Source of the DNA: Eledone cirrhosa
Lineage: Eukaryota
Reading direction: 5' to 3'
Assembly: GCA_964016885.1 (NCBI GenBank)
Contig: CAXHJY010000345.1
Coordinates: forward strand, 1 to 39,403
DNA: 39,403 nt
The notes below the pieces were generated by a model. It was not told the DNA's origin. It was given only the letters and a program-made list of their open reading frames with translations, and made no database searches. Of the stretch, positions 10,311-14,986 are shown piece after piece; position 1 is the first letter of the stretch, and each line of letters starts with the position of its first letter. A program made the position numbers and the translations under genes.

Positions 10311-11060
10311 TAATTCCTGTCGCTTATTTAATAGGATATCCTTAGATTTCATTATTTCAAATAGTTCTTGGGAACATAATCTACATTCATTTCTATTATT
10401 TTGATAAGGGGTGGCTCTTTTGAGCACACTCCAGGTCATATCATATTCTATATTCTTATTTCTATAACTATTAATTTTTTCTGCTAGAGATGTTGTATTA
10501 GCCAGTGCGGCATTTTTAAAACTATGTTTGTGGGTATTAAACCTTACCTTAAAATTGTTAGAAGTAGCTCCTATATATGAGCAAATAGAATCTTTAGTTT
10601 TAACTTTACATTTATAAACTATGTTGTTAACAAGACAATTTCCTTTTAATGGGCAGTTTGCTTTGTTTCTACAGTTACAACTTTTCGTTAATTCTGTATT
10701 TGAGGAGATATTATGGTTAGTTTGATGTATTGGTGGTATACTTATGTTTTTTTTTACATTTATATGCATTATAGACACTTATATTTTGTTTTATGTTTTT
10801 GGTTGTTGAGTATCAGAATTTAACTGTTGATCTATTTAAGATTTGATGGTATTTGTGGTTTGGCGGGAAGTTTTTCTCTAGGATATAAAAAATTTTTTTA
10901 ACAATATTATCCTTAATTTGTAAATTAAATGGAGCATTATACCAAGTAACTCGTCTATTACGGTTTCTATGTTGTTTATTATTTTTATAGGTTGCATCGT
11001 GATGTTTACTAGGAGGATTAATGTTAATGACCTCACCACGCACATTTTTAGTTAGATTTA
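10254..11060 (-). pseudogene. PLE C-terminal region: linker (WYNAPF) and GIY-YIG endonuclease, disrupted
   Basis: CNCRNKANCPLKGNCL, IVY..YIG, RFNTHK, CRLC..E, LNKRQELIISCNH; an in-frame TGA and a frameshift separate the two ORFs; homologous to the C-terminus of element C. Confidence 0.88.
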
Positions 11061-11307
11061 TTGATTATAAACATACAAAGACATTAGCCCTGAATTTTTG
11101 TATTTACATACATTTTTTCGACATGCGTATGCATGTGAACATATATTTTTATGCATATCTGTGAACGAAGTTACTTACATATATACACACACCTAACTGT
11201 ATTTTCTTGATATATTTTTGTGTATTTCATTGGTCAATTTGAACTCTGTTCCCAAACAGACCTGTAATTTTGAATTGTTGTTATTATCAATAAATATATT
11301 TCATTAT

Positions 11308-11489
11308 GTGGATTGGCAGTATTGGTAGAGGGTCGGACGCCATGCTTTGACGTATAGAGTTACGGCCCTTGCCTTTCTGAGTTCAAATCCCGCCAAGGTT
11401 AACTTTGCCTTTCATCCTTACGGGGTCGATAAAATAAAGTACCAGTAATGCACTGGATAATTGCAGGCCTTGTGCCTAACGTAGAAACA
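11308..11489 (+). mobile_element. tRNA-derived SINE (resembles abundant octopus SINEs)
   Basis: Absent from the three other arm copies; TSD ATTAT (11303-11307, 11490-11494); A-box-like TGGCAGTATTGG, B-box GAGTTCAAATCCC; central CTTTGCCTTTCATCCTT..GGGGTCGATAAAATAAAGTACC motif. Confidence 0.88.
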
Positions 11490-11639
11490 ATTATTTCTGA
11501 AGACGGCATATGTATGTGTTGGTATGTATATTATATTTGATAGTTTGTATAATTTTGTATAATTTTGTACATAGATCTTTTGAATATGCATGCCAATTCT
11601 AACACATATATGTCCTAGAAACGATCGTTAAATAATGAA
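11490..11639 (+). ncRNA. Hammerhead-like motif (family B), stem I shortened by the SINE
   Basis: ATTATTT CTGAAGA(11497-11503) .. GAAA(11618-11621) CGATCG TT AAATAAT. Confidence 0.6.
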
Positions 11640-11836
11640 CTTTTTTTGTTTAATATAAGGAACTATTACATTGTTTTATTCATTATTTTTTTAACATTTC
11701 ATCTTGACTCTGTATTCCGTTTATCTTTCACCGAAAGTGATTTTTCAATGCATCTCTTCTTTCCATGATATCCGGATTACATTGAGTTCTTCATACGGAT
11801 TGGACACTACCGTAAACTTTTGGTAGATTTATCTAC

Positions 11837-13733
11837 ATATATATATATATATATATATACATATATATATACATATATATATATATATATATATACATAT
11901 ATATATACATATATATATACATATATATATACATATATATATACATATATATATACATATATATATACATATATATATATACATATATATATATATACAT
12001 ATATATATACATATATATATATACATATATATATATATATATACATACATATATATATACATACATATATATATACATACATATATATATACATACATAT
12101 ATATATATACATATATATATACATACATATATATACATACATATATACATACATATATATATATATACATATATATATACATACATATATATATATATAT
12201 ATATACATCCATATATATATACATATATATATATATATATACATATATACATCCATATATATATACATATATATATATATATATACATATATATATATAT
12301 ATATATATACATATATATACATATATATTATATATGTAAATATATATATATATATACATATATATATACATATATATAAATATATATACATATATATATA
12401 TATATATATATATATATATATATATATATATATATATATACATATATATATATATATATATATATACATATATATACATATACATACATATATATATATA
12501 TATATATATGTATATATGTATATATATATATGTATATATATACATATATATATACATATATATATATATACATATATATATATATACATATATATATATA
12601 TACATATATATATATACATATATATATATACATATATATATATACATATATATATATACATATATATATATATACATATATATATATATATATACATATA
12701 TATATATACATATATACATATATATATATATATATATATATATATACATATATATATATATATAGATATATATATATATATATATATACATATATATATA
12801 TATATATATATATATATACATATATATATATATATAGATATATATAGATATATATATATATATATATACATATATATATATACATATATATATATACATA
12901 TATATATATACATATATATATATACATATATATATACATATATATATATATACATATATATATACATATATATATACATATATATATACATATATATATA
13001 TATATATATATACATATATATATATATATATATATATATATATATATACATATACACATATATATATATACATATATATATATATATACATTTATATATA
13101 TATATATATACATATATATATATATACATATATATATATATATACATATATATATATATACATATATATATATATATATACATATATATATATACATATA
13201 TACATATATATATATATATATATATATATATACATATATATATATATATAGATATATATATATATATATATATATACATATATATATATATATATATATA
13301 TATATACATATATATATATATATAGATATATATAGATATATATATATATATATATACATATATATATATACATATATATATATACATATATATATATACA
13401 TATATATATATACATATATATATACATATATATATATATACATATATATATACATATATATATACATATATATATACATATATATATATATATATATATA
13501 CATATATATATATATATATATATATATATACATATACACATATATATATATACATATATATATATATATACATTTATATATATATATATATACATATATA
13601 TATATATACATATATATATATATATACACATATATATATATACATATATATATATATATATATATATACATATCTATATATATATATATATATATATACA
13701 TATATATATATATATATATATATATATATATAT
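11837..13733. repeat. C-interrupted (TA)n microsatellite (CATATA) between B and B'
   Basis: Directly visible; opposite polarity to the G-interrupted arrays on the far side of each element. Confidence 0.95.
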
Positions 13734-13794
13734 AAAATGTTAAAAAAATAATGAATAAAACAATGAAACAGTTCCTTATATTAAACAAAAATAG

Positions 13795-13940
13795 TTCATT
13801 ATTTAACGATCGTTTCTAGGACATATATGTGTTAGAATTGGCATGCATATTCACCAGATCTATGTACAAAATTATACAAAATTATACAAACTATAATATA
13901 CATACCAACACATACATATGCCGTCTTCAGAAATAATGAA
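13795..13940 (-). ncRNA. Hammerhead-like motif (family B)
   Basis: Reverse complement of 17246-17391. Confidence 0.7.
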
Positions 13941-14179
13941 ATATATTTATTGATAATAACAACAATTCAAAATTACAGGTCTGTTTGGGAACAGAGTTCA
14001 AATTGACCAATGAAATACACAAAAATATATCAAGAAAATACAGTTAGGTGTGTGTATATATGTAAGTAACTTCGTTCACAGATATGCATAAAAATATATG
14101 TTCACATGCATACGCATGTCGAAAAAATGTATGTAAATACAAAAATTCAGGGCTAATGTCTTTGTATGTTTATAATCAA

Positions 14180-14986
14180 TAAATCTAACTAAAAATGTGC
14201 GTGGTGAGGTCATTAACATTAATCCTCCTAGTAAACATCACGATGCAACCTATAAAAATAATAAACAACATAGAAACCGTAATAGACGAGTTACTTGGTA
14301 TAATGCTCCATTTAATTTACAAATTAAGGATAATATTGTTAAAAAAAATTTTTATATCCTAGAGAAAAACTTCCCGCCAAACCACAAATACCATCAAATC
14401 TTAAATAGATCAACAGTTAAATTCTGATACTCAACAACCAAAAACATAAAACAAAATATAAGTGTCTATAATGCATATAAATGTAAAAAAAAACATAAGT
14501 ATACCACCAATACATCAAACTAACCATAATATCTCCTCAAATACAGAATTAACGAAAAGTTGTAACTGTAGAAACAAAGCAAACTGCCCATTAAAAGGAA
14601 ATTGTCTTGTTAACAACATAGTTTATAAATGTAAAGTTAAAACTAAAGATTCTATTTGCTCATATATAGGAGCTACTTCTAACAATTTTAAGGTAAGGTT
14701 TAATACCCACAAACATAGTTTTAAAAATGCCGCACTGGCTAATACAACATCTCTAGCAGAAAAAATTAATAGTTATAGAAATAAGAATATAGAATATGAT
14801 ATGACCTGGAGTGTGCTCAAAAGAGCCACCCCTTATCAAAATAATAGAAATGAATGTAGATTATGTTCCCAAGAACTATGTGAAATAATGAAATCTAAGG
14901 ATATCCTATTAAATAAGCGACAGGAATTAATTATATCGTGTAATCATAAACTGAGAAAAACATTTAAATATTATAAACCTAATTAA
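14180..14986 (+). pseudogene. PLE linker and GIY-YIG endonuclease, disrupted
   Basis: Same motifs as 10254-11060; TGA at 14425-14427, then a frame change before the CNCR motif. Confidence 0.88.

Follow-up and report, generated by a model that had tools for sequence, protein, structure and literature searches.

The locus described here raised the question of whether two near-identical copies of a damaged Penelope-like element (PLE) were separate insertions of a mobile family or the products of one insertion. The copies, B and B', lay in opposite orientations in a 39,403-nt stretch of DNA from Eledone cirrhosa (positions 1 to 39,403 of contig CAXHJY010000345.1, assembly GCA_964016885.1), which is referred to below as the window. 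A first-pass annotation, made from the sequence alone, had proposed a propagating, non-autonomous family and had named a one-off local duplication as the alternative. The analysis presented here favored that alternative: in the window both copies traced to one site, and B and B' were probably a single dead PLE insertion that was duplicated in place, together with both of its flanks, at the DNA level.

Two inverted copies with the same junction and the same lesions

B and B' were made up of the following parts. The types given for the arms are those of the model presented below.

7623-11835, open reading frame (ORF) on the minus strand: B, a copy of the PLE remnant
7623-8209, minus strand: 3' arm of B; recombinant in the model, with an outer part of the long-tail type and an inner part of the 3'-arm type
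8210-11062, minus strand: body of B, with a long noncoding 3' region and the coding remnant (11062-10254)
11063-11835, plus strand: inverted 5' arm of B, which bears a tail of 136 nt; in the model, the long arm that did not recombine
11308-11489, plus strand: insert that we take to be a tRNA-type short interspersed element (SINE), read by eye from A/B-box-like motifs; it has a 5-nt duplication and splits helix I of the antisense hammerhead copy
13735-17452, ORF on the plus strand: B', the second copy of the remnant, inverted relative to B
13735-14177, minus strand: inverted 5' arm of B'; recombinant in the model, with an outer short-arm type, an inner 5'-arm type, and the switch between 13900 and 14112
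14176-14986, plus strand: coding remnant of B', with the end of the thumb region, a CxCX5C linker (14561), and a GIY-YIG-type nuclease with CxxC and CxH
14987-17008, plus strand: long noncoding 3' region of B', with TG/TA-rich tracts and degenerate repeats of the ORF end (self-BLAST)
17009-17452, plus strand: 3' arm of B'; the unrecombined short arm in the model

Self-BLAST of the window, which was run with microsatellites masked, showed that 13933-16096 was an inverted copy of 11307-9144 (99.8% identity) and that the match extended to 17437 and 7774. An arm of 440-590 nt was present four times, at 7623-8209, 11063-11835, 13735-14177, and 17009-17452. The junction of inverted arm and coding remnant was the same in both copies; a 22-nt string that spans it occurred exactly twice in the window, at 14168-14189 on the plus strand in B' (break after 14177) and at 11051-11072 on the minus strand in B (break at 11063). 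The copies also had in common an in-frame TGA (14425-14427 in B' and 10813-10815 in B) and a frameshift near 14505-14528 (B' coordinates). Each translated to the same two pieces, an 83-aa frame and a 174-aa frame, and the coding remnants were two substitutions apart.

The two bodies differed by 10 substitutions and 4 indels over 2,831 nt. The terminus was 136 nt longer in B than in B', on both B arms, and the 182-nt SINE-like insert with its 5-nt duplication was found in one B arm (1/4 arms overall). In each copy, both ends halted at the same base, and alternating AT runs adjoined all four termini. The first-pass annotation was therefore accurate in its description of the junction at 11063 and 14177, the common lesions, and the differences in termini, SINE content, and point changes.

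Degenerate repeats were present in both bodies, at 14933-15846 and 9394-10307. In the masked self-BLAST they were 68-87% alike, included the last ORF codons, and were far older than the duplication; TRF left those at 14933-15846 unresolved.

The spacer consists of inverted copies of the outer flanks

The DNA around and between the copies was divided as follows.

6600-7622, no strand: flank X, an interrupted (TA)n array left of B and the template of spacer part 1
6949-7230, plus strand: insert that interrupts X but is missing from the X copy in the spacer; its translation ends in a C2H2-like stretch, and it is presumably the 3' end of an RTE-type long interspersed element (LINE)
11836-12389, no strand: spacer part 1, an inverted copy of flank X
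12390-12440, no strand: 51-nt run of uninterrupted alternating AT at the boundary between the X and Y copies; the putative new junction
12441-13734, no strand: spacer part 2, flank Y copied in inverted orientation; it contains a tandem duplication of 488 nt and runs beyond the point where a LINE interrupts Y
17453-18312, resuming at 21252 after the LINE, no strand: flank Y, an interrupted (TA)n array right of B'
18313-21251, minus strand: LINE with AP endonuclease (APE) and reverse transcriptase (RT), within Y and absent from the spacer copy; unbroken 950-aa frame (Pfam RVT_1, E = 3.5e-31; Exo_endo_phos_2, E = 5.5e-14)

The 1.9-kb spacer held no independent target DNA, being inverted copies of X and Y. 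It was not a palindrome in itself, as had been stated in the first-pass annotation (117 C versus 10 G on its plus strand; longest self-inverted match, 55 nt), but its origin from the outer flanks had been missed. For the flank comparison, the interruptions in the microsatellites were read as tokens, and the alignments were scored against 60 shuffles. X matched the spacer outward from B and Y matched the spacer outward from B', both inverted, with z scores of 23 (X) and 23 (Y) in a first scoring and 21.7 and 14.4 in a second, above all 60 shuffles. No B-flank versus B'-flank pair had a z score above 2.5, and pairs of a flank with a control array reached 3.7 at most.

When X 6600-6929 was aligned with spacer 12061-12370 in inverted orientation, 29/32 aligned repeat units were identical. 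The longest exact inverted matches were 139 nt (X) and 143 nt (Y), compared to 55-61 nt in three control arrays. A repeat signature found only at 12518 (minus strand) and 21262 (plus strand) indicated that the Y copy continued past the LINE. X and Y were both G-rich on the plus strand, whereas the spacer was C-rich, and the common polarity of X and Y was that of one array cut once. These flanks did not bear out the proposals that the unit propagates and that B' was a local hop. Two independent retrotranspositions, or a plain hop, should have placed the copies in unrelated flanks; the flanks here were duplicated and the arms, as described next, were mosaic.

Two features of this region lay outside the flank match. 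The 488-nt tandem duplication in the spacer microsatellite (about 12620-13600; exact run of 277 nt at offset 488) was absent from flank Y. The LINE, whose frame ran from 18398 to 21247 on the minus strand, was 5'-truncated, had short repeats at its 3' end, and looked young.

The arms are mosaic and diverged at two levels

In the outer 165 nt of the arms, three substitutions, a 7-nt indel, and the terminus grouped the arms by copy (B pair versus B' pair). In the inner 240 nt, three substitutions grouped them by position (3' pair versus 5' pair), with no differences within a pair. The outer arms of B and B' differed at 4/166 sites (2.4%) versus 14/3,311 (0.4%) for the rest of the element (P = 0.009); the divergence tests, which were done on counted sites, gave P values of 0.002-0.011. 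The long and short arm types were about equally diverged outside and inside (4/165 versus 3/240, P = 0.45), and this divergence was greater than that between B and B' (14/3,311, P = 0.005). A plain hop predicts that arms are inherited in place, in which case the five outer-arm characters would need to have arisen twice.

Probable duplication of one insertion in place

In the explanation that we favor, a Hydra-clade PLE would have inserted once in a (TA)n array, 5'-truncated and with an inverted copy of its 3' end at its 5' side. The ancestor would have had the order X, long arm, body, short arm, Y; it would have lacked the RT, been dead on arrival, and decayed afterwards. About 6 kb, comprising the element and both flanks, would later have been duplicated in place. 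The two ends of the copy would have been linked at the pure AT run, the far end of X to that of Y, and the copy would have reentered the chromosome by one crossover between its own short arm and the opposite-facing long arm of the chromosome, within 13900-14112. A reintegrated circle or three template switches during replication would have had an equal outcome. The expected product consists, in order, of X, a recombinant arm, the inverted body, the long arm, X and then Y in inverted orientation, a second recombinant arm, the body, the short arm, and Y, and it corresponds to the present locus.

We infer the ancestral state, the crossover, and the DNA-level nature of the event from a model that would account for the order of segments, the mosaic arms, the symmetric copy ends, and the two levels of divergence. 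Because the flanks of each copy were mutual inverted duplicates that rebuild one site, the common junction, stop, and frameshift would need only one origin. The ancestral arms of the model would have been 1.7% apart. By a rough estimate, about seven mutations would be expected in the 810-nt remnant at the arms' divergence, and 5.4% of single changes would give a stop, so that one stop and one frameshift should require no propagating master. Elements C and D, two other PLEs in the window (listed below), served as controls; both were single insertions with an inverted 5' arm, and duplicated flanks were found in 0/2. In C the 5' arm exceeded the 3' arm by about 120 nt, a length difference in the same direction as in the proposed ancestor, and a tail on one end only is described as typical of PLEs (PMC8557442). 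There is a small chance that sibling insertions of the ancestral one exist at other sites in the genome.

Several observations weighed against this explanation. Two control arrays taken from one long tract scored a z of 8 against each other, and the ends of the flank matches were fuzzy, with 17/28 and 25/40 units identical in two of three alignments. The two outer arms of B differed at 4/308 sites, which is above the expectation from the body rate (Poisson P of about 0.009 at 0.26%; one of several segments examined). Three insertions (the SINE, the RTE-like fragment, and the LINE) separated the duplicates at a point divergence of merely 0.2-0.4%; such differences are as consistent with misassembly, rapid insertion into the arrays, or a donor copy that came from the other haplotype as with later insertion. 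Finally, the switch interval was wide (about 210 of 440 nt), and the location of both switches inside it is weak evidence of reciprocity.

Coding remnant and clade placement

The relatives of the remnant and the layout of its arms agreed with the PLE origin and the 5' truncation with an inverted arm that had been proposed earlier. A phmmer search with the 174-aa frame returned 4,443 relatives at E values up to 0.001, the best of which was 62% identical; Pfam gave no match for this frame. When three RT-bearing, full-length relatives (696-759 aa) were aligned, only the C-terminal third of each, starting at about residue 470, matched B and B', and the absence of RT from both copies, which had also been reported, was concluded from these alignments. 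The C termini of the three relatives matched the nuclease frame with E values of 1e-26 to 1e-39, and their RT halves matched element D instead.

The Hydra clade of PLEs is characterized by a CxCX5C linker, the lack of CCHH, CxxC and CxH around E and N, a (TA)n target, and hammerheads, and it is also defined by the RT motifs RWK and DKT (PMC8557442). The linker zinc finger of the remnant was CxCX5C, at 14561 and at the mirror site in B, and a CxCX5-6C pattern was present in 121/150 relatives listed. Read by eye, the C-terminal nuclease frame had the IVY...YIG of GIY-YIG nucleases with R, E, and N; in the translation, CCHH was absent, and CxxC and CxH flanked the conserved E and N. The AT runs at the termini were those expected of a (TA)n target. 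On its linker and nuclease motifs, the remnant appeared to fit the Hydra clade; the RT-motif part of the definition lies outside the remnant. Among the relatives listed, four were at least 600 aa long, with RW[KR] in two and DKT in three. A Neptune assignment of the remnant was dropped because the CxCX5C linker and the missing CCHH fit Hydra.

The frames of B had no exact match in the protein collection. Four short B motifs were not found in the searchable part of the PMC8557442 supplement, which includes one Hydra family from an octopus, and B did not look like one of the families listed there. Three B motifs were likewise not found in the searchable part of the supplement of an Octopus vulgaris repeat paper, which is itself without a sequence library (PMC13282606).

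Hammerhead-like motifs in the arms

The arms were scanned for hammerheads with a descriptor search, and 5,000 dinucleotide shuffles of one arm were used as the control. A hammerhead-like motif was present in 4/4 arms versus 0/5,000 shuffles, which agrees with the earlier description of the arms as hammerhead-bearing. Two of the motifs were sense to the ORF, which was the case only in the 3' arms.

17246-17391, plus strand: type I hammerhead-like motif in the 3' arm of B', with a 10-bp helix I, the core, a 107-nt helix II region, a short palindromic helix III, and U at the cut site
7972-7820, minus strand: hammerhead-like motif in the 3' arm of B, sense to the ORF

In three arms the core was accompanied by a helix I of 10 bp and a helix III that was short and palindromic; helix I was 7 bp long in the arm split by the SINE. 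The helix II region was very long (107-114 nt), and two extra bases preceded GAAA. The B' motif folded as a three-way junction (z = -3.1; 2/200 shuffles as stable), with helix III absent from the centroid structure. Rfam gave five weak matches over 10950-11845, none of which was a hammerhead, and the best 150 of 262 matches over 4600-18400 were microsatellite-driven miRNA noise. The arms carry a predicted hammerhead-like motif with an intact-looking core. Elsewhere in the window, a single hammerhead-like motif (411-476, plus strand; helix I of 8 bp) was seen between microsatellites; it was AT-rich and could be chance or another PLE end.

Alternative explanations

The enzymes of the element itself, provided in trans, might instead have generated a copy locally, which we regard as unlikely. 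In one such route, a read-through RNA would be reverse transcribed from a priming nick in the long arm, and the templates would be switched at (TA)n. This route gives exactly the same order of segments, but it needs an uncut RNA that begins about 0.5 kb upstream, in microsatellite. In a snap-back route, both ends of one break would be primed on two RNAs, and each cDNA would snap back and continue into the flank; the two RNAs would then need 3' ends 2.4% and 136 nt apart but bodies only 0.4% apart. It is similarly doubtful that PLE enzymes wrote the duplication from one double-strand cut, with a cDNA that snapped back on the inverted arm after target priming, rebuilt the outer arm, and entered host DNA to give both copies.

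The biochemistry of PLEs lends such routes some credit. Purified PLE protein is described as nicking and extending both strands, cutting AT-rich DNA at its own junction of ORF and pseudo-long terminal repeat (pLTR), and starting reverse transcription inside the RNA, and it is predicted to dimerize (PMC11167929); for the inverted structures of PLEs, a self-priming origin has been proposed (PMC3846280). The ends of each copy, which stop at the same base, point the same way. However, C and D lacked flank duplications, and no partner RT was seen. Snap-back retrotransposition was our preferred explanation at first and was then demoted, since the divergences and the C and D flank controls better fit one ancestral insertion. 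Neither PLE insertions with inverted flank duplication nor non-autonomous PLEs with terminal inverted repeats were described in the literature searched, which comprised titles and the starts of abstracts, with most subscription journals outside it.

It also seems improbable that the locus is an assembly artefact, in which a second haplotype of X, element, and Y was threaded into the first via the inverted arms and the AT run. The middle segment differed from the outer one by 0.2-0.4% and by three presence/absence insertions, as two alleles might, and the inverted structures of PLEs are a known source of assembly problems (PMC8557442). However, an artefact would require three false joins, and the kilobase microsatellites were resolved base by base, with no N in the window, which suggests long reads that would span the 440-nt arms.

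About as unlikely, on the flank and arm evidence given above, was the family of the first-pass annotation, in which dispersed, non-autonomous units with a fixed junction and hammerhead arms are moved in trans and B' is a hop from B or a sister insertion. The common junction and lesions, the (TA)n context, and the predicted, intact-looking hammerhead core are consistent with such a family, and there are precedents: PLE terminal repeats suffice for mobilization in trans (PMC3846280), and a Repbase Hydra entry has an attached inverted copy and non-autonomous PLEs exist (PMC8557442). However, at 3.7-4.2 kb the copies were not miniature, and no partner was found. An autonomous partner with the same 3' end was absent from the window, and word-based protein searches gave no match among 148 and 4 candidates, which is weak evidence. 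Element D was rejected as a partner; its protein pieces were 36-62% identical to those of B, and its DNA did not match the arm of B.

Other elements in the window

Three further PLE copies were found.

4665-6462, minus strand: element A, a 5'-truncated copy of the family of C (Pfam GIY-YIG, E = 2.4e-05), with 97.7% identity to C across 648 nt
28168-32410, minus strand: element C, a near-full-length PLE, interrupted by stops or frameshifts, with RT, GIY-YIG, and the Neptune-like features CX4CxxC linker and DKG
34530-38250, minus strand: element D, a frameshifted, Hydra-type PLE with RT (RWR, DKT) and inverted arms that are 96% alike

The inverted 5' arm of C was 96% identical to the arm of element A and 92% identical to the 3' arm of C itself, a hint that two different templates were used. 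In element D, the hammerhead-like motif had an altered core, and a second, short inverted piece was present at the 5' end. A 29-nt piece of the tail of B (11775-11803) was 86% identical (E = 9e-5) to the 3' regions of A (5921-5949) and C (29071-29099), in the opposite sense to their ORFs. By the mask used, 20,465/39,403 nt of the window were period-2 or AT-alternating tracts, and the five PLE copies and the LINE pieces lay within them.

Implications

For repeat curation, the locus is a warning that two copies almost identical in sequence, and alike in their ends and lesions, may mimic a young non-autonomous family, and that microsatellite flanks mask an in-place duplication unless their interruptions are read. 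It also presents the inverted arms of a PLE as probable recombination sites. If flank palindromes were found to surround many PLE copies, the origin of the tandem and inverted structures of PLEs, whose mechanism is called undefined in PMC8557442, would become directly testable. Should PLE enzymes have made the duplication after all, each copy would be the center of a palindrome of its own flank, and the locus would be a direct footprint of PLE inverted-repeat and second-strand synthesis and of a PLE-driven inverted duplication of host DNA.

Comparison with known systems

Miniature inverted-repeat transposable elements (MITEs) are short, noncoding elements of DNA-transposon origin with short terminal inverted repeats, a target site duplication (TSD), and no functional protein. 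B and B' resemble them in having terminal inverted repeats and no functional protein. The MITE-like label of the first-pass annotation did not hold, however, because the copies were 3.7-4.2 kb long, had arms of 440-590 nt, contained the coding remnant of a retroelement, and showed no readable TSD.

The closest likeness was to PLEs of the Hydra clade. With these, B and B' had in common the CxCX5C linker, the lack of CCHH, CxxC and CxH around E and N, the (TA)n target, and, as a predicted hammerhead-like motif, a hammerhead near the 3' end (PMC8557442). Typical features of PLEs are truncation at the 5' end, an inverted copy next to the element, and a tail at one of the two ends, and Penelope-13_HM of the Hydra clade, which B resembles, has a hammerhead on each strand and, at its 5' end, an inverted copy that is 5'-truncated (PMC8557442); the architecture of a single B is therefore already known. 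A U at the cut site and additional bases next to helix II are also found in many of the Hydra hammerheads listed there. The differences were the lack of RT in B and B', the distance of about 2.3 kb from stop codon to hammerhead-like motif, compared to Hydra elements that are generally less than 3 kb in all, and a helix II region of 107-114 nt versus about 10-25 nt in the published table (PMC8557442).

Defective Penelope derivatives of Adineta vaga are likewise incomplete, stop-bearing, and framed by inverted pLTRs with a tail on one arm, and Pen1 of this species has, as B does, a long spacer before the 3' pLTR (PMC3846280). Those derivatives differ in belonging to the Penelope/Poseidon clade, in having short pLTRs (193-218 bp where given), and in sometimes having a TSD, and the account of them in PMC3846280 describes no flank duplication in the portion that was available. 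Non-LTR (long terminal repeat) retrozymes and non-autonomous Chlamys elements such as MRC1 are also noncoding or defective and PLE-dependent, and retrozymes carry type I hammerheads, as the 3' arm of B' carries a type I hammerhead-like motif (PMC8557442; bioRxiv 10.64898/2026.07.22.740005). However, those elements form head-to-tail tandem or direct-repeat units in many copies, whereas the arms of B are inverted and the window held only copies from one site.

The proposed duplication resembled those made via a circular intermediate or by template switching, in which the duplicate is a circular permutation of the donor that is inserted in inverted orientation (PMC7450558). The order of segments here has this pattern. 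The cases described in PMC7450558 are large, distant human duplications joined by microhomology, whereas the duplication at this locus spanned about 6 kb, lay in place, and would have been formed via the element's own arms.

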